In this document: positions 22,011 through 38,078 of the stretch, piece by piece
How positions within the stretch are numbered: position 1 is the stretch's first letter
Layout: every line of letters begins with the position of its first letter
Assembly (NCBI GenBank): GCA_037446255.1
Contig: JBBIIY010000005.1
Coordinates: forward strand, 2,859-66,858
DNA length: 64,000 bases
Origin: Coprothermobacterota bacterium
GTDB taxonomy: Bacteria > Coprothermobacterota > HKB111
Direction: 5' to 3'
Notes under the pieces: generated by a model
What the model was told of the DNA's origin: nothing
Database searches by the model: none
What the model saw: only the letters and a program-made list of their open reading frames with translations
Made by a program: the position numbers and the translations under genes

Positions 22011-24275
22011 ATGCTGAAAATGAAGAGAATTTTTGCTCTTCTATTAATTATTTTATTTTTAGTGCCTCTGGGACAGGTTAAAAATATACCAGAGGTTTAT
22101 TCACAAATTACCTTTAAAGATGTAAAAGGTCATACATTTGAATCGGAAATTCTTCGTTTAGGAAAGCAGGGTTACCTTAAAGGTTATCCTGATGGCACCT
22201 TCAAACCCGATGTTTCCATTAGCCGGGCTGAGATAGCAGTTATCATTGCAAAAGTGTTTAAATTACCTTTTTCTAACAATAACAACCTTCCTTTTACCGA
22301 TATTTCACGTACTCATTGGGCATACTCTTCTATTCAGGCTGTTTACCAGGCAAACTTGATGCTGGGATACCCCAATGGTACTTTCAAACCCGAACACTCC
22401 CTTACCCGAGCCGAGTTAGCGGTACTCCTGGGAAAAACTAAAGGTCTGGATAAAGAGGTTAGCCGGGTCAAAGAAAACATTTACTGGTCTAACGATGAAC
22501 TGTCAGTTCCCGGTTGGGCAGCAAGCTTTTTAACTCTGGCTTACTATCCTGAACACCAGTTCTTAACTTATAGACCGGGCAGAATGGTAGCACCCAATGC
22601 CCGCTCTACTAGAGGAGAAGTTGCTTATGGTCTGCACTCCTTAATTTATCCTCCTACAACTGGTAGCATCTTGAACATAGTAATGAACCAGGAACCGGAC
22701 ACTTTAAGCACCTGGACGGGCTTTACCACAGCTATGAACCACTTGCTCGGCGCTATAAATACCCCCGCCCTGGGCAGGGGTGATGGTTGGATTCTTTATC
22801 CTGGATACCTCAAAGAGATTCCTACCGTGGAAAATGGTCAGTGGAAAATAACCGGTAGCGGGCATATGGAGTTAACTTTTACCATAAGGGATAATCTTTT
22901 CTGGAGTAACGGTAAAAAAGTGAATATTGAAGACTGGTCTTATGCTTTTTCTGTATTTATGGACTCTCAAACTCCTGTCAGGTCCAGGGTTATAGAGGAA
23001 AAAATAGATCTGACCAAAGGCTCGGGTGGATATGGCACTCGTGGTTTTGAAGTGTTAAATCAAACTCAAATAAAATTTTATTTTAAAGAAATAGATTGGA
23101 GAGCTAACGCCAGCCCTCCCGGAGTAGGACTTTATTTCAAAGAACACCTGGAACCAGCGTATCGTAAAATGAAAGACACTGGAATAATTGACCATTTTAT
23201 AAAAGATGAAAATCTTTCCCGAAAACCAATTGGGATGGGTCCTTACCGTATTGTCGACTGGAAGCCTGGTGTACATATTATTATGGAAAAAAATCCTTTT
23301 TATGCCTGGGGTAATCCACTTACCGACAGGTTGGTTATACGCTTTATACCTGATACCACAGCCTTATTAGCGCAGGCAATTTCTGGAAAAACCGTGGATA
23401 TCGCCATAATGGGCTTAACTTTTGACCAGGCTCTGGCTTTAGAAGCCAGACCCCCTGCACACCTTAAGGTGTTTTTCTCGCCGGGAACTTTTGTAGAGCA
23501 TATTGCCTTTAACCTGGATAATTCAATTTTATCTGACCTGCGTGTGAGAAAAGCCTTAGCTTATAGTCTTGACCGTGAAAAGATTATCAGGGATTTCTAT
23601 GGAAATAGGGTGGAGCTGGCTCATAGCTTTTTTAACACCCGACACTGGGCTTACGACGATACTGTGCTTACCAGATACAATTTTGACCCTGAAAAAGCCC
23701 GCAATCTCCTGGAAGAAGCCGGGTGGAAGATAGGGTCGGGGGGAATTCGGGTTAAAGACGGGGTAAGACTTTCGGTGGAACTTAGAACTACATCCGGGAA
23801 CGCACTCAGAGAAAGAATACAATCTTTTATTCAACAACAGTGGAAGGATATCGGGGTAGATATGCGCATTCATAACCTGCCTTCTACTACCTTTTTCAGC
23901 AGGATTCACTACACCATGAGAGCCTGGCCTTCCATGCTTTTATTATCCATGCCTTTTGAACCGTTGTTCATGGGTGAAACTGTGTGGCGAGAAGACTACA
24001 TTCCTGCAGAAAATAATAATTGGTCAGGTTCTAATATTTACGGTTATAAAAATGCAGAAGTTACCGATGCCCTGAAAAAAGCAGAAATGGAACTAAGAGA
24101 AAAAGAAAGAAAGAGATTGCTTTCTCTGGTCCAGAGAAGGATAAGCGATGAGCTTCCTATACTTCCGATAAACTATACTGTGGGTGTTTCTTCCTATAAA
24201 ACTAACCTGGTAAATTACCGTCCACTCGGATTGGGACCAATTACCTGGAATATTCACTACTGGTATTTTAGGTAA
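22011..24275 (+). CDS. S-layer-homology (SLH) domains fused to a family-5 (peptide/nickel-type) ABC substrate-binding domain
   Basis: Signal peptide. Repeated SLH-like segments (F.DV.GH...YLKGYPDGTFKPD..ISRAE and FTDIS.THWAY...LMLGYPNGTFKPEHSLTRAE). The remaining ~530 aa resemble SBP_bac_5-type proteins. An ATG at 22020 has better spacing to AGGAGG than the one at 22011. Confidence 0.75.
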   Translation: MLKMKRIFALLLIILFLVPLGQVKNIPEVYSQITFKDVKGHTFESEILRLGKQGYLKGYPDGTFKPDVSISRAEIAVIIAKVFKLPFSNNNNLPFTDISRTHWAYSSIQAVYQANLMLGYPNGTFKPEHSLTRAELAVLLGKTKGLDKEVSRVKENIYWSNDELSVPGWAASFLTLAYYPEHQFLTYRPGRMVAPNARSTRGEVAYGLHSLIYPPTTGSILNIVMNQEPDTLSTWTGFTTAMNHLLGAINTPALGRGDGWILYPGYLKEIPTVENGQWKITGSGHMELTFTIRDNLFWSNGKKVNIEDWSYAFSVFMDSQTPVRSRVIEEKIDLTKGSGGYGTRGFEVLNQTQIKFYFKEIDWRANASPPGVGLYFKEHLEPAYRKMKDTGIIDHFIKDENLSRKPIGMGPYRIVDWKPGVHIIMEKNPFYAWGNPLTDRLVIRFIPDTTALLAQAISGKTVDIAIMGLTFDQALALEARPPAHLKVFFSPGTFVEHIAFNLDNSILSDLRVRKALAYSLDREKIIRDFYGNRVELAHSFFNTRHWAYDDTVLTRYNFDPEKARNLLEEAGWKIGSGGIRVKDGVRLSVELRTTSGNALRERIQSFIQQQWKDIGVDMRIHNLPSTTFFSRIHYTMRAWPSMLLLSMPFEPLFMGETVWREDYIPAENNNWSGSNIYGYKNAEVTDALKKAEMELREKERKRLLSLVQRRISDELPILPINYTVGVSSYKTNLVNYRPLGLGPITWNIHYWYFR

Positions 24276-25817: not shown

Positions 25818-26663
25818 ATGAAAGATAAACTTGATGAATTTTTACTTTATCTCTCTCTGGAAAAGGGGTACTCCAGGCAAACTATCACTGCTTATAAGTC
25901 TGACCTGAAATTTTATTTTCAGAACTTTGACAATTTGGATGAAAATTCTTGCGAGGCTTATTTAAAGCTTCTATACAGCAAAGGGTTAAAAGGAAGCAGT
26001 ATTGAAAGAAAAATTTGCAGTCTCAAAGCTTTGCTTAAATATCTATACCTCAGGAGTTATATCACCAAAACCAATTGGTCCGGCTTAAAGTCCATCAAGC
26101 GAGAAAAAAAACTGCCCAATCCTCTTAGGCCTTCGGAAATTGAAAAGATATTCTCTTTAGCCAACCCCAAAGAAACTCTTATTCTCGAAACTCTTTTCGC
26201 TACTGGCATCAGGGTCTCAGAATTAGTGGGGTTAAAAGTGAAAGATGTGGATTTGAAGGAAGGTTTTTTAAAAATCAAAGGCAAGGGGAATATAGAAAGG
26301 ATAGTTCCCATGACTCTTTCTCTTATGGGTATGCTGGAAAAACATATATTGGAAAGGAAGGTTCAACGAGATGATTTCGTGTTTTATGATACTCATCCCC
26401 AGGTTCATCTAACCCGACAGGCAGTTTTTCTGATGATAAGGAAACTCGCTGAGTTGGGAAGTTTAACCAGAAAACTGGGTCCTCATATGTTCAGGCATAC
26501 TTTTGCTACCCGCCTGCTCCGTGGTGGAGCAGACTTGAGAGTAGTTCAAGAAATACTGGGGCATAAAAATATTACTACCACGCAAATATACACCCAGGTT
26601 GAAGATGATGCCCTAAAACAGGCTTATCAACAGAGCCATCCTTTAAGTAAGAAGAATAAATAA
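25818..26663 (+). CDS. xerD: tyrosine site-specific recombinase, XerD/XerC type (chromosome dimer resolution)
   Basis: 281 aa. SAM-like N-domain (LSLEKGYSRQTITAYKSDL), catalytic region ATGIRVSEL, HMFRHTFAT, LGHKNITTTQIYT. Lies immediately upstream of deoB, as ripX-drm does in Bacillus. Confidence 0.75.
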   Translation: MKDKLDEFLLYLSLEKGYSRQTITAYKSDLKFYFQNFDNLDENSCEAYLKLLYSKGLKGSSIERKICSLKALLKYLYLRSYITKTNWSGLKSIKREKKLPNPLRPSEIEKIFSLANPKETLILETLFATGIRVSELVGLKVKDVDLKEGFLKIKGKGNIERIVPMTLSLMGMLEKHILERKVQRDDFVFYDTHPQVHLTRQAVFLMIRKLAELGSLTRKLGPHMFRHTFATRLLRGGADLRVVQEILGHKNITTTQIYTQVEDDALKQAYQQSHPLSKKNK

Positions 26664-27850: not shown

Positions 27851-28819
27851 ATGAATTACCAACCGCTATACCTGGAAATGATTAAAACCGGAGAAATTGA
27901 TGAAAGAATTAATAAACTTTTTAATATTCTCCAGGATTGTGTTTTATGCCCACGAAAATGCCGCATCAACCGTATTAAAGGCGAAAAAGGTTACTGCCAG
28001 GCTGGTCGCGAACTGGAGGTTTCCAGCTATGGGCCTCACTTTGGTGAAGAAGAACCATTGGTGGGTTCACAGTCCCTGGTAGTTTCCTACCTGGGAAGGG
28101 TTAAACCAGCTGGTGGTTCTGGTACCATTTTTCTAACTCACTGCAGTCTTCGCTGTAACTACTGTCAAAACTATACCATTAGCCACTTGGGTGAAGGCAA
28201 AACCGTCTCTCCAGAAAAATTTGCTCGAATAATGCTTGAATTGCAAAATGCCGGGTGCCGTAATATTAATCTGGTTACTCCGACACATTATACTCCTCAA
28301 CTGGTTAAATCGCTGAAAATAGCCGGGAAAATGGGTCTTCTCCTTCCAATTGTGTACAACTGCGGAGGTTACGAAGAGGTAAACACCATCAAGTTGCTTA
28401 AGGGTTTGATTGATATTTACATGCCTGATATTAAGTATAGTTCACAGGAATCAGCACAAAAATATTCTGATGCCCCTGATTACTTTGAAAGGTGCAAGGA
28501 AGCAGTTAAAGAGATGCACAGACAGGTGGGAGACTTGCAACTTAACGATAAAGGAGTCGCTTTTCAGGGACTTTTAATCAGGCACCTCGTTCTACCAAAT
28601 GACCTGGCAGGTAGTTTTGATATTCTTAAATTCATTGCCAGTGAAATATCTATTAATACATATATAAATATTATGGACCAGTATCGGCCAATGTTTAGAG
28701 CCAGCCAGTACCCGGAAATCAATCGTATACCCAGCAGACAGGAGATAGGTTCAGTTATGGAGATAGCTAAAAATCTGGGATTAACTCGTTTCAGAAGAGA
28801 TTATTTCTCCAATACCTGA
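27851..28819 (+). CDS. radical SAM protein, PflX-like (COG1313)
   Basis: N-terminal CPRKC...C cluster and CSLRCNYCQN radical-SAM motif preceded by GSGTIF. Confidence 0.8.
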   Translation: MNYQPLYLEMIKTGEIDERINKLFNILQDCVLCPRKCRINRIKGEKGYCQAGRELEVSSYGPHFGEEEPLVGSQSLVVSYLGRVKPAGGSGTIFLTHCSLRCNYCQNYTISHLGEGKTVSPEKFARIMLELQNAGCRNINLVTPTHYTPQLVKSLKIAGKMGLLLPIVYNCGGYEEVNTIKLLKGLIDIYMPDIKYSSQESAQKYSDAPDYFERCKEAVKEMHRQVGDLQLNDKGVAFQGLLIRHLVLPNDLAGSFDILKFIASEISINTYINIMDQYRPMFRASQYPEINRIPSRQEIGSVMEIAKNLGLTRFRRDYFSNT

Positions 28820-28900: not shown

Positions 28901-29884
28901 ATGATTAATGGTCTGCAAGCAATAAAACTTATCCGCGAGAAAAAGATTAAATTCCCCCTGCTACTGTGGGGACCAGAAGTATATTTAAGAGACCGTATTA
29001 AAAGAGAGCTGATTAACTCTTATTTAGAAAAAAGATTAATTGCTTTTAACTTTCAGGAAGTAAAAAACGGCGACCTCAAAATAAATGAGATAGTCAATGC
29101 CCTGTTGGAACCACCTCTACTTTCCCCGGGGAGGATATTTTTTATACACCTTTCTTCCTACTCAAAAAGCGAATTAACCCAACTGGCTTTCAGTTTAGAA
29201 AAAATAGAGTTGTTTAATACTTATTTTGTAGGTTATTCCCCCGAATCGCTTCCCCAGGAGTTTACCAAGGTTATAAACAGTAAGGGAGGCACAATAATCA
29301 ATCTAATTAAACCTGCAGCTAAAACTGTTCTTGACTTCATCAAGGATCTATTTACCCGTGCCGGAATGAGCGTAGAAGACAGAGTAGTGGAAACACTGGT
29401 AAGTGATAAGAGGGACTTGCAAACCCTCAGAATGGAGGTAGAAAAACTAATTTTATATGCTTCAGATAAAAAAACAGTACTGATGGAAGACTTGTTGCAG
29501 GTTTATTCCTCACCCGAAGGAGATAATATTTTCTCCCTTATTGACGGACTTTTTGAAGGTAAAACAGGTAAAAGCCTGAAAACTTTAACTTATCTTACCA
29601 GCATTGGGGAGTCACCTTCTGCCATCTTATCGGTAATGGCTTCTCAGATAAGAGGAGCTTTCAAAACCCTTTATTTAAATGAAAAAGAAACCGGACTTCA
29701 TCCTTATGTGTATAGAAAACTAAGAACTTATGCCAAAAGAATGCATCCCCGTCACCTGGAACTTGCTCTGTTAATACTGGCTGATACCGACGAAAAAATT
29801 AAAAGTGGCAAGGGTGACAGTAACTTCCTGATAAATCAAGCCGTAATAAAGGTAGGTCAATTATGGAAAACAAGGTTAAATTAA
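28901..29884 (+). CDS. holA: DNA polymerase III delta subunit
   Basis: 327 aa. Length and pattern (LLLWGPEVYL..., central LEVEKLILY, C-terminal helical domain) are typical of HolA. Confidence 0.7.
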   Translation: MINGLQAIKLIREKKIKFPLLLWGPEVYLRDRIKRELINSYLEKRLIAFNFQEVKNGDLKINEIVNALLEPPLLSPGRIFFIHLSSYSKSELTQLAFSLEKIELFNTYFVGYSPESLPQEFTKVINSKGGTIINLIKPAAKTVLDFIKDLFTRAGMSVEDRVVETLVSDKRDLQTLRMEVEKLILYASDKKTVLMEDLLQVYSSPEGDNIFSLIDGLFEGKTGKSLKTLTYLTSIGESPSAILSVMASQIRGAFKTLYLNEKETGLHPYVYRKLRTYAKRMHPRHLELALLILADTDEKIKSGKGDSNFLINQAVIKVGQLWKTRLN

Positions 29885-31098
29885 TAAAGCTGGACAATGG
29901 TTTAACTCTCATCAGCGACCACCGCCCCTGGTACACTTCTGCCAGTGTAGTAGCATATGTGGGAGTGGGAGTAAAGCACGAACATGAAACCAGGGTAGGC
30001 ATTTCTCATCTGCTGGAACATGTAATTTTTAAGGGTACCAAGAATTATCCTACTTTTAAGGATATTACCGGTAAAATTGAGGGGATTGGAGGAAGATTGG
30101 ACGCTTTTACCTCGTATGATTATAGTGCTTATTATGCCAAGGTTCCCCGCAGTCAGGCAGAAGTTGCCTTACATATGATACTTGACCTGGTCTATAACCC
30201 TCTATTACTGTCAGAAGATATAGATAGAGAAAAAGCTGTAATATATAATGAACTAAGACTTCGCTACGATGACCCTGAAGAGTATTCGGATTTAATGTTA
30301 ACTCAGAATTTATGGGTTAAAGGGCCTTTATCTAGAGAAATAGGCGGTACACCGGAAACAGTTGCTTCTATAACTCAGCAGAATATTATTGAACTTCACC
30401 AACATTTTTACCGCAACCCTAATATCACTATTGTAGCTTCAGGTGCCTTTGAAGAGAATAACCTCATAAACATTCTTGATAAAATTCCTACACAGCATTT
30501 TGATTACCCCTCCAAGGATATGGACTCAGCATATCAGGTACCCCAGAGGAAGAGCATAACCCGTGATACTTCAGAATCTTACCTCAGGTTAGGATATCCG
30601 CTTTTTAACCGATTTTCTCCTCTCAAAACCTCGGTAGCGGTTTTTAATGTACTATTAGGGGTAGGCGGCAGTAGCCGTCTTTTTGAAGAGGTAAGAGAAA
30701 AAAGGTCCCTTACTTATGATATCGGGTCTTCACTGCTACTTCTCAAAGAAGCAGGAGAGTTATCTATCGCTTTGAGCACCCATCCTGATAAGATGGATGA
30801 GGCTTTAGGAGTGATTCTTAAGGAAGTTGAAAACCTGAGGGAAGGCAGGGTCATTGAAAAGGAAGTAGCAAGAAGCAAGGCTTATATAAAAGGGAGCTTT
30901 CTTCTGAGTTTGGAAGATTCCCTGAGAAGAGCTTTTTTCTGGGGAGAAGGTTATTTACTTGATGGGGTTATTAAAGATATTGAAAATGAGATCAGAAACT
31001 ATGAATCGGTGGATTTTTACTCGGAAGTAAATCAACTGAAACCTTACTTTGCGCCTGATAGGTGTTGTATCGTTTCTGTTGTCCCCAGAAATAGTTAG
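29863..31098 (+). CDS. M16-family (pitrilysin-like) zinc peptidase
   Basis: Inverted zinc motif HLLEH in GISHLLEHVIFKGT, with the downstream Glu region in ...VIYNELR. Confidence 0.8.
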   Translation: MENKVKLIKLDNGLTLISDHRPWYTSASVVAYVGVGVKHEHETRVGISHLLEHVIFKGTKNYPTFKDITGKIEGIGGRLDAFTSYDYSAYYAKVPRSQAEVALHMILDLVYNPLLLSEDIDREKAVIYNELRLRYDDPEEYSDLMLTQNLWVKGPLSREIGGTPETVASITQQNIIELHQHFYRNPNITIVASGAFEENNLINILDKIPTQHFDYPSKDMDSAYQVPQRKSITRDTSESYLRLGYPLFNRFSPLKTSVAVFNVLLGVGGSSRLFEEVREKRSLTYDIGSSLLLLKEAGELSIALSTHPDKMDEALGVILKEVENLREGRVIEKEVARSKAYIKGSFLLSLEDSLRRAFFWGEGYLLDGVIKDIENEIRNYESVDFYSEVNQLKPYFAPDRCCIVSVVPRNS

Positions 31099-31174
31099 TT
31101 CAATCTCTTTCACTATTGAATAACTAAAATACGATAAAATATTATATTCATAACAAATATATGGGAGAATTAAA

Positions 31175-31312
31175 ATGAAAAAAATAAAAATAATTTTCAA
31201 AAAAGCCCTGAAAGCGTTATCTTCGGAAAGATTTAAAGTATCCTGCCAATCTGCTTGTAAAACCTCCTGCACTATAGCCAACCAGACAAACTTTCTAAAA
31301 CCTGGCAAATAA
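31175..31312 (+). CDS. SCIFF-family RiPP precursor peptide, cysteine-depleted variant (45 aa, 3 Cys; not in the ORF track)
   Basis: Hand translation gives MKKIKIIFKKALKALSSERFKVSCQSACKTSCTIANQTNFLKPGK. RBS GGGAGA sits 6 nt upstream. It contains the family core SCQSACKTSCT(V/I)(A/G)NQ and ends 2 nt before the radical-SAM maturase gene. Confidence 0.75.
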   Translation: MKKIKIIFKKALKALSSERFKVSCQSACKTSCTIANQTNFLKPGK

Positions 31313-31314
31313 GC

Positions 31315-32709
31315 TTGGTGGAAAATTTTACCTTGAAGAAAGGAAGAGGTCAGGTTCACCTCTTCCGCTGTGCCAATGAATTCTTCGCTCTGGATGTTAA
31401 TTCAGACACCCTCATAGAAATTTCAGCTGAAGTTTATGAAATTCTAAAAAAAATAAACCAAACAGGAGAACTTTCTTTCTTTGAAATTCCTCAGGAAAAC
31501 CAGGATGATTTTAATAAAATAATAACTCTTTACCAGGAAGAAGCCCTCTTTTCCTCACCCCTGGAATATTCAGCAGAATATTCTCCTCACCTGCAGGGTA
31601 TGTGCCTTTTTATAGATGGAAGGTGTAACCTTGCCTGCTCTTACTGTTTTGTCAAGAATAAAACTACCACCGAATATCTTTCAGCAATGAATTTTTATAA
31701 AGCCCGTATTGCTATTGATTTTCTTTTCCAGAACTCCCCTTATGAGGAAATGGAAGTAGATTTTTTTGGTGGTGAACCGCTTTTAAATTTCCCTGTATTA
31801 CAGAATACTGTTAACTATGGAAACAAAAGAGCCCTGGAAGAAGGAAGGAAAATCAACTTCACCCTGACCACCAATGCTATTTTGTTGACCCCACTTGTTC
31901 AGGAGTTTCTGATTGATAATCACATTGAAGCTGTGCTGTCTCTTGATGGTTCACAGGATACCAACGACCTATACCGTGTTAACCCTCAGGGTAAGGGTTC
32001 TTATAATACCGTTTCTCATAATATTAAAGAGTACATATCTAAAAACCCTCCACCTTTCTATATCCGTGGAACTTATACCAGTCAGACACTTCATTTTGCT
32101 GACTCAACCCGGTATCTTTTTAACGAAGGTTTTCCGGTAGTTTCTATGGAACCCGTAGTTGGTAAAAAACATAGTTTCACCCTGAAAGAAGATGATTTAC
32201 CTGAAATATTCCAGCAATATGAATTGCTATCTCAATGGTATTTAGAAGAAAAACTTAAAGGTAAGGAAATAACTTTTTTCCACTTCCTTCTGGACCCTTT
32301 AAGGGGACCCGACCTTAAAAGAAGAATCGGGGGTTGCGGTGCTGGTCGGGAGTACATTGCTATTTCCCCCAGAGGAAATATTTATCCCTGCCACCAGTTT
32401 ATTGGCGAAACTAGTTTTATATTAGGGAAGCTGAGTGAAGGCATAAAGAACTTGGATCTAAGGGATAGATTTATATCCCTTGATTTTTCCACTAAGGATA
32501 AATGTTTACAATGTTGGGCAAGATTTTATTGTAGCGGTGGATGCCACGCTAACCATTATTTTGCCAATGGTAGTATCTACCAACCCGATGATTTAGAATG
32601 CGCTCTTCTAAAAAAAAGATTGGAATGGGCCTTATGGATTAAAGCAAAATTGAAACTTCTGAATAAAATAAAGGGAGGTAAAAATGAAAAAAATACTGCA
32701 AAGTTCTAA
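31315..32709 (+). CDS. SCIFF-type radical SAM/SPASM peptide maturase
   Basis: CNLACSYCF radical-SAM motif. C-terminal SPASM cysteines (GGCGAG...YPCHQF, CLQCWARFYCSGGCHANH). Immediately downstream of the SCIFF-like peptide. The start is TTG at 31315 or GTG at 31318. Confidence 0.85.
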   Translation: MVENFTLKKGRGQVHLFRCANEFFALDVNSDTLIEISAEVYEILKKINQTGELSFFEIPQENQDDFNKIITLYQEEALFSSPLEYSAEYSPHLQGMCLFIDGRCNLACSYCFVKNKTTTEYLSAMNFYKARIAIDFLFQNSPYEEMEVDFFGGEPLLNFPVLQNTVNYGNKRALEEGRKINFTLTTNAILLTPLVQEFLIDNHIEAVLSLDGSQDTNDLYRVNPQGKGSYNTVSHNIKEYISKNPPPFYIRGTYTSQTLHFADSTRYLFNEGFPVVSMEPVVGKKHSFTLKEDDLPEIFQQYELLSQWYLEEKLKGKEITFFHFLLDPLRGPDLKRRIGGCGAGREYIAISPRGNIYPCHQFIGETSFILGKLSEGIKNLDLRDRFISLDFSTKDKCLQCWARFYCSGGCHANHYFANGSIYQPDDLECALLKKRLEWALWIKAKLKLLNKIKGGKNEKNTAKF

Positions 32710-33073
32710 AGCTCCAAAGGCTATCGGACCTTATTCACCAGCAATTGAGGTGGAAGGATTCAAGAAAATCATTTTCCTGTCCGGTCAAATACCCCTTGAC
32801 CCTGAAACCGGGGAATTAATTGGCACAAACATTAAAGAACAGGCAAGAAGGGTACTATTAAACATCGTAGCACTTCTTGGCGAAAGTAATTTATCGCTGG
32901 ATAATGTTGTTAAAAACACGGTATTTTTAACGAATCTCCAGGATTTTTCCGATTTCAACGAGGTCTATAAAGATTTTTTTAAGGAAATTTACCCTGCGCG
33001 AACAACCATAGAAGTTAAGGGGCTTCCCCGGGGAGCATTGATAGAAATCGAGTCAATAGCGGTAGAATATTAA
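32684..33073 (+). CDS. ridA: RidA/YjgF-family reactive-intermediate deaminase
   Basis: 129 aa. APKAIGPYSPA, FLSGQIPLDP and YPARTTIEV...LPRGALIEIE motifs. Confidence 0.85.
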   Translation: MKKILQSSKAPKAIGPYSPAIEVEGFKKIIFLSGQIPLDPETGELIGTNIKEQARRVLLNIVALLGESNLSLDNVVKNTVFLTNLQDFSDFNEVYKDFFKEIYPARTTIEVKGLPRGALIEIESIAVEY

Positions 33074-35596: not shown

Positions 35597-36319
35597 TTAA
35601 CGGTGCCTCGCCAGGCTGATTCTTTCACCATCAATAATTTTAACATTTAAAGTTTTTTCTAATTCGGATATTTTTATACTACCTTCCGTGGTGTAAAGGC
35701 TTTTGAAATAAAGCAGGGTGTATTGGTTATTTGTAAGCCAATCAAATTCACTTGAGTCATTACAGATATTTGTTTTGAATCTCGGTAGGAGTATTTTCTC
35801 TAAAAAATTACTTACTACTGCCTTATCAATAATTTCTAAATGTAAAACAAAAGGTCTGATATTAAACAATTTTTCTTTCCTTTTCCGGTTGTCTTCTCGT
35901 AAAACCTGGTAGTAAGATTGACTTAAAAAACTGTTAATAGATAATTCAATTCCATTCCCTTCTACTAAAATTAAATAGTTGATTTCTATGGGGAAGCTTC
36001 CCAGGGAAGGATAACTATCAGGCAAATATTTTACCTCTGAAAGGTTGTAACCGCAAGGAAGAGTGGAATTAACCATAAAAATAATCTCTTCAGGTGTAAG
36101 CTGTTTATCTAACTTAACTTCCAATAATTGAGCCCGGCTGGAAAAACCTACCGGAAGGGGAGGTCCAAAGGACATTATCGGACGGGGTGAAAAACCCTGT
36201 GAGTACACAAGCGGAATATTAGCCCTGCGTAGGGTTCTTTCCAGGGCTCTTACCTCTTCCAGATGAGACAAGAACCTGACTGACCTTTCCCTATTAAATA
36301 TCAGTAAATAACGAGGCAT
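35597..36319 (-). CDS. TIGR03936-type (DUF2344) radical-SAM-associated protein
   Basis: 240 aa. N-terminal RFLSHLEEVRALERTLRRANIPLVYSQGFSPRP is family-typical. Overlaps the upstream TIGR03960-type gene. Confidence 0.7.
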   Translation of the reverse strand: MPRYLLIFNRERSVRFLSHLEEVRALERTLRRANIPLVYSQGFSPRPIMSFGPPLPVGFSSRAQLLEVKLDKQLTPEEIIFMVNSTLPCGYNLSEVKYLPDSYPSLGSFPIEINYLILVEGNGIELSINSFLSQSYYQVLREDNRKRKEKLFNIRPFVLHLEIIDKAVVSNFLEKILLPRFKTNICNDSSEFDWLTNNQYTLLYFKSLYTTEGSIKISELEKTLNVKIIDGERISLARHR

Positions 36320-38078
36320 CAGACTCCTCCTCCCTGAAGGCTTTATCTCTTTCCCGCTTCAATAATTCCGGTGATAATCCACAATTAATCATCTCCCAGG
36401 GTAACGGTCCTTCTTTTTCTTCCAGGTAATACAAAGGGTTTATCTCTTCTTCCGTAAATGCCTGTTGATAATGATTTATTTTAAGATGTTCTTCCCAACC
36501 ATCAAACCGCGCCCCTTTCTGAAAAGCACTGAGTATCACCCTGTGTAATTTCCTATCACCCCGACCAAATACTCCTTCCAGGAAACTCATAAGTGGGTTA
36601 TGCTCCCGCAAAGTAAAAAGAGGCTCACGAAGCTGGCTTTTTAAATATCCAATTTTTTCGTAACAATCTTTAATTAATAGTTGTTTCTCTCTTTCAAAGG
36701 GAGTATGAGGTTTGGGAACAAAGGGTGAAACGGTGATATTAAAGTGAAAAGGCCGCTTACTGGTGCGATAGGTATTAGCTGTTTTATGAAGTTCTTTTAC
36801 CAAGGGCACAATAGCCTGCACATCCTCTTCTCTTTCAGTAGGAAGACCTATCATAAAATAAAGTTTTAATAAATCCATTCCCTGCTTGGCAGTTTCTTTT
36901 ACAGTATCAAATATTTCTTCTTCCGGTAGGTTTTTATTAATCACTTTTCTTAAGCGTTCGGTGGCTGCCTCTGGAGCAAAGGTCAGGTTGGTCCTTCGCC
37001 TATCGCTTATGCAGGCTAATTCAACCGAGGAAGCTCTCATGCTGAGAGATGGCAGGGATAAGGTAAGCTTATCACCATAAGTCTTTTTCATAAATAAAAT
37101 TAATTCTTTCAGGTAAGGATAATCGCTGGAATTAAAGGAGGTCAAGCCTAAGGTGTCAAAGCCTGTATTTTCAATAATTCTGCAGGATTGTTCTTTCAGG
37201 AGCGGAAGACTTCTAAACCTTACCGGTCTAAAAAGGTAACCTGCCAAACAGAATCTACAACCCCTCCAGCAACCGCGGAATAGTTCCACTACTGCCCTGT
37301 CATGAATCGGAGCTTTGAAAGGAACCATCTGTCTCAGAGGATAATAAGCGCATTCCAGGTCTTTGATGATTCTTCTATTGATAATTCTGGGAATACACGC
37401 GTATTCTTTAACAGGTTCTAATCCCAGAAAAACACCTTCCTGGTTAAATATTTCTTCATAAAGAGATGGTACATAAACACCCCCTATACTGCATAGCTCC
37501 AATAGAATGTCCTTCCGTGAAGCTTGCTTTAATTTAAGCTCGGCAATTTTATTCAGAATCTCCAGCAAGCCCTCTTCAGCTTCACCTACGAAAAACAGGT
37601 CAAAGAAGGGAGCCATAGTCTCGGCATAGGAAGCAACCGGTCCCCCACCAATTATAAGCGGGTCATTTTCGCCTCGGTCTTTTTGAAATATAGGTATTCC
37701 ACCTAAATCCAGGATGTTCAACACATTGGTGAAAGTTAATTCGTACTGCAGGGAGAAGCCAATAATATCAAATTTATTTAAAGGTTTCCTGCTTTCCAGA
37801 GAAAACAGGGGAATTTTCTCCTTTCTCAATATTTCTTCCATATCAAAATAAGGAGCATAAGACCTTTCCATAAAATAAGGGGTGGTTTCGTTGATTAAAT
37901 AATAAAGTAGAAGATGGCCAGAATTACCCATCCCGATTTCGTACAAATCGGGATAAATCATAGCCATTCTAACTGGAGCCGTCTCCCAGTTTTTTTTAAT
38001 ACTATTGAATTCTCCACCTGTATAGCGTGAAGGACTGGAAACACGGTTTAAAAAATGTTCAATGTTAACTATATCCAA
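36294..38078 (-). CDS. TIGR03960-type B12-binding-domain radical SAM protein
   Basis: 594 aa. RGCWRGCRFCLAG cluster motif and an N-terminal B12-binding-like region. Conserved pairing with the DUF2344 gene. Confidence 0.8.
   Translation of the reverse strand: MDIVNIEHFLNRVSSPSRYTGGEFNSIKKNWETAPVRMAMIYPDLYEIGMGNSGHLLLYYLINETTPYFMERSYAPYFDMEEILRKEKIPLFSLESRKPLNKFDIIGFSLQYELTFTNVLNILDLGGIPIFQKDRGENDPLIIGGGPVASYAETMAPFFDLFFVGEAEEGLLEILNKIAELKLKQASRKDILLELCSIGGVYVPSLYEEIFNQEGVFLGLEPVKEYACIPRIINRRIIKDLECAYYPLRQMVPFKAPIHDRAVVELFRGCWRGCRFCLAGYLFRPVRFRSLPLLKEQSCRIIENTGFDTLGLTSFNSSDYPYLKELILFMKKTYGDKLTLSLPSLSMRASSVELACISDRRRTNLTFAPEAATERLRKVINKNLPEEEIFDTVKETAKQGMDLLKLYFMIGLPTEREEDVQAIVPLVKELHKTANTYRTSKRPFHFNITVSPFVPKPHTPFEREKQLLIKDCYEKIGYLKSQLREPLFTLREHNPLMSFLEGVFGRGDRKLHRVILSAFQKGARFDGWEEHLKINHYQQAFTEEEINPLYYLEEKEGPLPWEMINCGLSPELLKRERDKAFREEESDASLFTDI

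Follow-up and report, generated by a model that had tools for sequence, protein, structure and literature searches.

SCIFF peptides form one of the most widespread RiPP families of anaerobic Firmicutes, and their function and final structure are unsettled. The characterised members are two ranthipeptide systems, namely CteA/CteB (thermocellin) of Clostridium thermocellum and Tte1186a/Tte1186 of Caldanaerobacter subterraneus. A single thioether has been mapped in SCIFFs (Tte1186a and CteA), and the literature disagrees on its acceptor: Cys32 is linked to Thr37 in vitro, whereas a C-gamma link between Cys32 and Thr34 forms upon co-expression in E. coli (PMC8326336, PMC8172795). The fate and role of the remaining five cysteines, including the reaction in the native host, are treated as open in reviews (PMC8326336). 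In the crystal structure of CteB, the leader extends the beta-sheet of the RRE domain (PMC6231123), and auxiliary cluster 1 is held by three cysteine ligands with an open iron site (PMC10177961, PMC6231123). Selenium EXAFS placed the donor residue, as a SeCys substitute, on an iron of Tte1186 that was assigned to its auxiliary cluster 1, and the donor Cys also binds an enzyme iron in PapB (PMC10177961). The latter belongs to another ranthipeptide system, PapA/PapB (freyrasin) of Paenibacillus polymyxa, in which PapA carries six CX3D motifs, each of which yields a Cys-to-Asp C-beta thioether (PMC8326336, PMC8172795).

We analysed a stretch of 64,000 nucleotides, hereafter the window, which contains a locus of comparable design. 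As in CteA/CteB and Tte1186a/Tte1186, two genes form a cassette, in which a peptide of about 45 residues is encoded directly 5' of an enzyme with RRE, radical SAM and SPASM domains. The peptide shares with these systems the MK-x-IK leader start, the donor Cys32 and Thr34/Thr37 (CteA numbering), and the enzyme shares the ten cluster-ligand cysteines and the fold. However, C21, C24 and C43 are missing from the window peptide, whose leader is shorter by 4 residues; the enzyme has Asp in place of C336 and Gly in place of H102; neither gene reaches its NCBIfam equivalog cut-off; and the host is related to Ca. Lithacetigenota instead of Clostridia. We consider it probable that the two genes are a ranthipeptide cassette which represents a sister lineage to the SCIFF system, diverged from it, and uses the one-thioether mechanism. 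The features of the peptide gene and its surroundings are as follows, in window positions.

30955 to 31359, minus strand: antisense ORF of 134 aa, spurious, which masks the peptide gene in the ORF list; without Pfam match
31116 to 31145, plus strand: promoter-like site (TTGAAT and TATTAT, spaced by 18 nt) within the 76 nt that separate the peptide gene from the M16 peptidase gene; consensus scan, weak evidence
31163 to 31167, plus strand: ribosome-binding site GGGAG, 7 nt 5' of the ATG; read directly from the sequence
31175 to 31312, plus strand: 45-codon gene for the three-cysteine SCIFF-type precursor peptide; Pfam SCIFF match, identity in four assemblies, conservation in relatives
31232 to 31297, plus strand: conserved core F20-L41, preceded in the peptide by the leader-like N-terminus MKKIKIIFKKALK
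31244 to 31273, plus strand: codons C24-Q-S-A-C28-K-T30-S-C32-T33; register by alignment, crosslink roles from PMC8326336 and PMC8172795
31315 to 32709, plus strand: radical SAM/SPASM maturase of the CteB/ScfB type, 464 aa; TIGR03974, alignment to CteB 5WGG, AlphaFold model

The peptide ORF starts with the ATG at 31175, ends with the TAA at 31310-31312 and translates exactly to MKKIKIIFKKALKALSSERFKVSCQSACKTSCTIANQTNFLKPGK (45 aa). At the place of its ribosome-binding site, GGAG or GGAGG is found 5' of the peptide gene in the related loci L001, L003, L004, L005 and L087. The stop codon is followed by GC and then by TTG at 31315, so that the maturase would start 2 nt after the stop. This junction, TAAGCTTG, is kept in three related loci. 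The public gene call P0126 starts instead at the TTG at 31333, a codon that reads CTG in L004 and ATA in strain X4/P0002. Given that the junction is kept and TTG 31333 is not, a start at 31315 with tight coupling is the best reading, by which the peptide gene would be translationally coupled to the CteB-type radical SAM/SPASM gene. The two genes are separated by 2 nt in the window, L004, L005 and L087, and lie 161-241 nt apart in L001 and L003. The initial annotation, made from the window alone, had described a 45-codon ORF with a ribosome-binding site, 2 nt 5' of a radical SAM/SPASM gene, and the ORF, the GGGAG and the TTG at 31315 are all as it described. It had also taken the overlapping antisense ORF to be spurious. 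A Pfam search of this ORF gave no match, and its frame is open only in the window, none of the five related loci having a piece of it longer than 65 aa; we thus agree that it is a chance ORF.

The promoter-like site scores 9/12, and such sites are no commoner in the region than in shuffled sequence. Folding of the RNA from 31099 to 31420 revealed no structure beyond the shuffled controls (z = -0.27), and thus we propose no leader or attenuator. A 9-bp GC-rich hairpin at 31342-31366 (GGAAGAGGT, a 7-nt loop and ACCTCTTCC) lies just 3' of the peptide gene, 27 nt inside the maturase coding region; L004 and L005 keep only part of it, and the coding sequence in which it sits is conserved.

The close relatives of the maturase are 98, 84, 81, 58 and 55% identical to it, after which identity drops to about 41%, the level of ordinary SCIFF maturases. 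Seven distinct three-cysteine peptide sequences adjoin maturases of this clade, which are 55-98% identical to that of the window. Each clade locus with upstream sequence encodes a three-cysteine peptide, and members of the database clusters add more sequences. The clade peptides are listed below.

Window: MKKIKIIFKKALKALSSERFKVSCQSACKTSCTIANQTNFLKPGK
L004: GTG start, KKVKIIFKKALKAQPRERFKVSC...
P0001 (same peptide in L005 and L087): ...KTQPLERFKVSC...
P0122: MKKLKIIFKKALKTLTLERFKVSC...
L001/L002: MNKIKVIFKKALTRVHKDKFKVSCQSACKTSCTVANQTIFIKSEKKA
L003: MNKIKVIFKKALRLLPNEKFKVSCQSACKTSCTVANQTIFIQTKKKS

The survey for three-cysteine variants that had been suggested thus yields seven distinct sequences, including those of Ca. 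Lithacetigena and Ca. Psychracetigena, and a literature search found no description of a three-cysteine SCIFF form. With the peptide itself as the query, a word-indexed search of 5.8 billion proteins gave one candidate, P0001, and an exhaustive phmmer search of 1.84 billion representatives gave only P0130 and the unrelated repeat protein P0144. With this query the short length of ordinary SCIFFs keeps them from reaching E = 0.001, and the census was thus taken from maturase-anchored loci. It holds 76 ordinary peptides (73 distinct), which are part of the family and come from 80 ordinary SCIFF loci, among the matches listed in a species-representative genome collection, and from two further loci. 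Of the matches listed in a scan of genome contigs (at least 600 stretches), which served as the control, all were ordinary SCIFF loci, 35-42% identical, and none was a close relative.

Profile comparisons place the locus beside the ordinary family. The peptide exceeds the threshold of Pfam PF13165 (SCIFF), with 35.8 bits against 27 (E = 7.1e-9). Its only NCBIfam match is TIGR03973, with 33.7 bits (E = 2.5e-8) against an equivalog cutoff of 50; its clade relatives score 32.6-34.2 bits, and ordinary SCIFF peptides, which served as controls, 72.6-81.7 bits. For the maturase the best NCBIfam model is TIGR03974, with 394 bits against an equivalog cutoff of 425, compared with 396-420 bits for clade members and 517-532 bits for the ordinary maturases used as controls. 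An alignment of both gene products to the SCIFF models had been proposed as a check on the assignment. The peptide matches both of its models, with E values far beyond chance, and the enzyme is fitted best by the SCIFF maturase model. As both the peptide and the enzyme fall below the NCBI equivalog cut-offs, the window locus represents a divergent sister group rather than an ordinary SCIFF member. In terms of the strict family, the locus falls short in the number of cysteines (six in the family) and at the cut-offs of TIGR03973 and TIGR03974; in terms of wider membership, it scores above the PF13165 threshold, has the core with the donor Cys and acceptor Thr, and lies 5' of an ScfB-type maturase. 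Judged by these profiles, the 45-aa peptide is a SCIFF homologue. The locus, which is homologous to SCIFF/ScfB and would function like it, is best filed as a phylogenetically coherent three-cysteine SCIFF.

We compared the peptides position by position in an alignment anchored on the invariant SACKTS, with the window, L004, L005, L001 and L003 as the clade set (n = 5). In this alignment C24, C28, T30, C32 and T33 of the window peptide correspond to CteA C28, C32, T34, C36 and T37, respectively. All 76 ordinary peptides have Cys at C21, C24, C28, C32 and C43 and Thr at T34 (CteA numbering, as in the rest of this paragraph unless stated). Cys at C36 is found in 74/76 (Leu in L017, Val in Caldisericum L089) and Thr at T37 in 73/76 (Gly in L059, L061 and L084), and position 44 is mostly Glu. 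In the clade, C28, C32, T34, C36 and T37 are each kept in 5/5, whereas C21 is variable, C24 is replaced by Phe (5/5), C43 by Asn or Ile, and position 44 is Phe (5/5). Accordingly, the clade peptides have lost the first, second and sixth cysteines of the family (C21, C24 and C43) and keep C28, C32 and C36 together with both candidate acceptors Thr34 and Thr37; their leader falls short of that of ordinary SCIFFs by 4 residues. The residues C28, S30, A31, C32, K33, T34, S35 and N40 never change in all 81 peptides. The whole segment C28-N40 of the clade is the same as in ordinary SCIFFs except for positions 38 (V/I) and 39 (G/A), which vary in the ordinary set too. By contrast, F20, T38 and F40 (window numbering) are conserved only within the clade.

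Much of the initial description of the peptide is borne out by this comparison. The window peptide has exactly 45 residues and only three cysteines (C24, C28 and C32), and the published thioether Cys/Thr pair is preserved, with the donor Cys and both candidate acceptor Thr residues in place. The segments ERFKV and NQTNF had been named as the replacements of the missing cysteines. Three cysteines are indeed lost, but their sites in the window peptide are S17 (variable in the clade), F20 and N39, and the SACKTS-anchored alignment excludes F40.

Other natural SCIFF peptides with fewer than six cysteines beside an ScfB-type maturase occur in the census. The peptide at 2322-2495 of L089 (Caldisericum sp., GCA_049966075.1) has five cysteines, with C36 replaced by Val (KTSVT), and that around 3816 of L017 (a Bacillota MAG) also has five, with C36 replaced by Leu (KTSLT). 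Unlike the window clade, both lose only C36 and keep C21, C24 and C43, which is the complement of the clade's loss, and the L089 maturase passes TIGR03974 with 517 bits. Three six-cysteine ordinary peptides, in L059, L061 and L084 (genes at about 2975, 3523 and 3773), have Gly at position 37 (KTSCGVANQ or KTSCGIANQ). Thus Thr37, the in vitro acceptor, is not universal, whereas Thr34 is invariant in 81/81. C28 and C32 are the only cysteines that survive in every variant (window clade, L089 and L017). Taken together, the three-cysteine clade, the five-cysteine variants without C36 and the Gly37 peptides point to C28, C32 and Thr34 as the putative irreducible set of SCIFF, and such a set favours the Cys32-Thr34 link that was seen in vivo.

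The adjoining gene had been called a radical SAM/SPASM gene, and the comparisons with CteB substantiate this. Its product has the three-domain architecture of CteB, with an N-terminal RRE-like domain, a radical SAM core and a SPASM domain, and is a full-length CteB/ScfB homologue: residues 13-445 align with residues 6-451 of CteB (PDB 5WGG) at E = 2.8e-95. An AlphaFold model (mean pLDDT 87.6) has 5WGG_A as its best PDB match, with TM 0.83/0.87 over 455 columns. With ordinary ScfB homologues, the window enzyme shares about 35-42% identity. Within the gene, the following sites were located.

31615 to 31620, plus strand: D101-G102, clade-specific, just before the CX3CX2C motif; 6 clade versus 115 ordinary sequences
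31624 to 31647, plus strand: CX3CX2C motif C104, C108 and C111 of the SAM-cleaving [4Fe-4S] cluster; numbering matches CteB C104/C108/C111 (PMC10177961)
32311 to 32313, plus strand: D333, clade-specific Asp at a position that is Cys in 115/115 ordinary ScfB homologues; 6 clade versus 115 ordinary sequences
32335 to 32601, plus strand: SPASM seven-cysteine motif; all seven in 100% of 121 aligned sequences

With the CteB ligand list taken from PMC10177961 and PMC6231123, C341/C359/C410 correspond to the auxiliary cluster 1 ligands C344/C362/C413, and C397/C400/C406/C429 to the auxiliary cluster 2 ligands C400/C403/C409/C432. All ten published Fe-S ligand cysteines are kept in the 6 clade and 115 ordinary maturases aligned. 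Three positions set the clade maturases cleanly apart, and G102 and D333 are present in all six. G102 lies two residues before the first SAM-cluster Cys, at a position that is His in 97% of ordinary sequences, and the preceding residue is Asp in the clade and Ala in 91% of the ordinary ones. D333 corresponds to native C336 of CteB, 8 residues before the first ligand of auxiliary cluster 1; C336 is not among the published ligands, and the invariance at C336 and H102 is an empirical feature of 115 homologues rather than a published criterion. The model is least confident in the linker around D333 (pLDDT below 50 at residues 328-330, a mean of 64 in the blocks of 321-340). We also considered D333 as the counterpart of an extra auxiliary cluster 1 ligand of anSME and rejected it, for the alignment puts anSME C255 opposite C341 and not D333.

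The maturase is 464 aa long in the window and 450 aa in sister strains. Runs X2, X3 and X4 have one extra base at 32656-32657 relative to the window (X1), as a result of which the window maturase reads through the ribosome-binding site and start (ATG 32684) of the Rid gene, whereas the sister strains end in ...KLKQSE. As the change comes after the last residue aligned to CteB, this 3' length difference is probably harmless strain variation.

Other radical SAM/SPASM enzymes are more distant. PapB is a homologous radical SAM/SPASM enzyme of a ranthipeptide system, but the window maturase reaches 252.5 bits on the PapB model, below its cut-off of 340, and the window peptide, unlike PapA, has no CX3D motif. 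The anaerobic sulfatase-maturating enzyme (anSME) is likewise a radical SAM/SPASM protein with two auxiliary clusters and is a distant second structural match (TM about 0.62). However, anSME lacks an RRE domain and acts on sulfatases. In the entries P0124, P0127 and P0128, deposited with the Ca. Lithacetigena and Ca. Psychracetigena MAGs, the maturase is named anaerobic sulfatase-maturating enzyme and the peptide hypothetical protein. Given only 99.7 bits on TIGR03942 against a cutoff of 349, the anSME name is a mis-annotation; our analysis corrects both names, as the maturase is not an anSME and the peptide is not merely a hypothetical protein.

These comparisons enable us to propose a putative course of maturation, drawn from CteB, Tte1186 and PapB. 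The N-terminal leader (MKKIKIIFKKALK...) would dock on the N-terminal RRE domain of the enzyme, and the thiolate of peptide Cys28 would bind the open iron of auxiliary cluster 1. A 5'-deoxyadenosyl radical would then abstract a side-chain hydrogen of Thr30 or Thr33, and one non-alpha (C-gamma) thioether ring would form, while Cys24 and Cys32 would stay unlinked or serve in another role. Because the window system keeps every element of its homologues' mechanism, the product is likely to be a ranthipeptide with one thioether ring, from Cys28 to Thr30 or Thr33. Among the two acceptors, the comparative data lean to Thr30, the counterpart of invariant Thr34. If so, the family can exert its conserved function without the three missing cysteines. 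The clade represents a natural deletion experiment, in which C21, C24 and C43 are lost and C28-N40 stays essentially unchanged under selection.

With two substitutions beside the SAM cluster and a third close to auxiliary cluster 1, the clade enzyme could differ in regiochemistry or in the number of turnovers. A product of the same family with a different or additional ring pattern, installed by the altered enzyme, is accordingly conceivable although we regard it as unlikely; such an enzyme may use Cys24 or Cys32 as the donor, make two or three links, or take Asn36, Gln37 or Thr38 as the acceptor. In its favour, D101, G102 and D333 stand at positions that are 91-100% conserved in the 115 ordinary homologues, the clade maturases form a separate bipartition in 50/50 bootstraps, F20, T38 and F40 are peculiar to the clade peptides, and reviews leave open what becomes of the non-donor cysteines of ordinary SCIFFs as well. 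But the published cluster ligands are all unchanged, and the sameness of C28-N40, apart from positions 38 and 39, argues for an unchanged fit between substrate and enzyme, as the single-thioether reading has it.

A further proposal, which we put forward as speculative and hold to be improbable, is that the loss of peptide cysteines and the enzyme changes C336 to Asp and H102 to Gly are one co-evolved event. If true, the extra cysteines of ordinary SCIFFs and C336 would cooperate in a second step with which the Lithacetigenota-type system dispenses, perhaps the closure of further rings, an exchange of ligands at auxiliary cluster 1 or thiol-disulfide chemistry. In that case the clade would be a minimal SCIFF made by nature, in which the essential Cys32-Thr link is set apart from an as yet undefined accessory function. 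The midpoint root of the maturase tree was placed differently in two samplings, so that the three cysteines may be either ancestral or derived. The paired substitutions C336D and H102G are concrete targets for mutagenesis.

Four independent subsurface-metagenome runs carry the locus, with 0 base differences in 31175-31312. The assemblies of the four runs differ from the window at about 30 places within 30900-32800, with SNPs on either side of the peptide ORF. Pairwise comparison of the core F20-L41 between clade peptides revealed 4-8 synonymous versus 0-3 non-synonymous codon differences, which indicates that the peptide is under purifying selection. It is thus very improbable that the maturase is active while the peptide is not its substrate or not made, as a decaying remnant of a six-cysteine SCIFF gene. 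Such a remnant would fit with the peptide score under the TIGR03973 cut-off and with the outcome of a search for RNA runs that carry the locus, which found none, and NCBIfam does have a model, NF040492, for ScfB-related orphan maturases; yet the window maturase scores 358 bits on it against a cutoff of 855, the peptide's frame, ribosome-binding site and core are intact even where maturases are only 55% identical, and the peptide still adjoins the maturase in L001 despite inserted flanking genes. An artefact, be it a sequencing or assembly error that hides cysteines or an antisense 134-aa ORF that is the real gene, has a negligible probability: the antisense ORF does exist in the window, but its frame is broken in all relatives and matches no family, the four independent assemblies are identical over the peptide ORF, and the same three-cysteine pattern recurs in seven distinct sequences. 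The last two observations exclude the hidden-cysteine error that had been named as a way in which the three-cysteine peptide could prove false.

In public records, filed under candidate division WS2, the clade proteins carry the names Candidatus Psychracetigena formicireducens and Candidatus Lithacetigena glycinireducens. This group is the phylum Ca. Lithacetigenota of Nobu et al. 2022, a deep branch of the Terrabacteria in hyperalkaline systems hosted by serpentinite; SCIFF and radical SAM are not mentioned in that paper (PMC9751293). The cassette is carried by the window organism, which is a relative of Ca. Lithacetigena/Ca. Psychracetigena, and by two more distant lineages. SCIFF-type systems are thereby extended to a deep-branching candidate phylum of hyperalkaline serpentinite springs. 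The gene order holA, M16 peptidase, peptide, maturase and Rid is common to the window and L004, and is also found in L001 with two insertions. Since this order is common to L001 although the flanking proteins there are only 54-66% identical to those of the window, the cassette has long been inherited vertically. No six-cysteine or other second SCIFF gene was found within the 64-kb window.

The M16 (insulinase/PqqF-like) peptidase gene at 29863-31098 ends 76 nt 5' of the peptide gene. We considered this peptidase as a leader protease and found the idea unsupported, as the adjacency occurs only inside the housekeeping synteny of the clade. In L001 an inserted BNR/sortilin-like gene separates the M16 gene from the peptide gene, and ordinary loci have no comparable adjacency, the one weak match (26% identity) lying about 3 kb 3' of the maturase in L053.

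Further radical SAM genes lie near the SCIFF cassette. At 35597-38078 on the minus strand, a 26-nt overlap joins the gene for a DUF2344 protein of 240 aa to the start of that for a 594-aa radical SAM protein, which has a Radical_SAM_N2 domain and a weak, sub-threshold match to a B12-binding domain; these two genes form a second radical SAM pair, and a small radical SAM gene is located at 27851-28819. The ordinary chromosomal context of the region also includes the gene at 22011-24275 for a 754-aa protein with S-layer homology repeats and a family-5 solute-binding domain, and a gene for an XerC/D-type tyrosine recombinase at 25818-26663.
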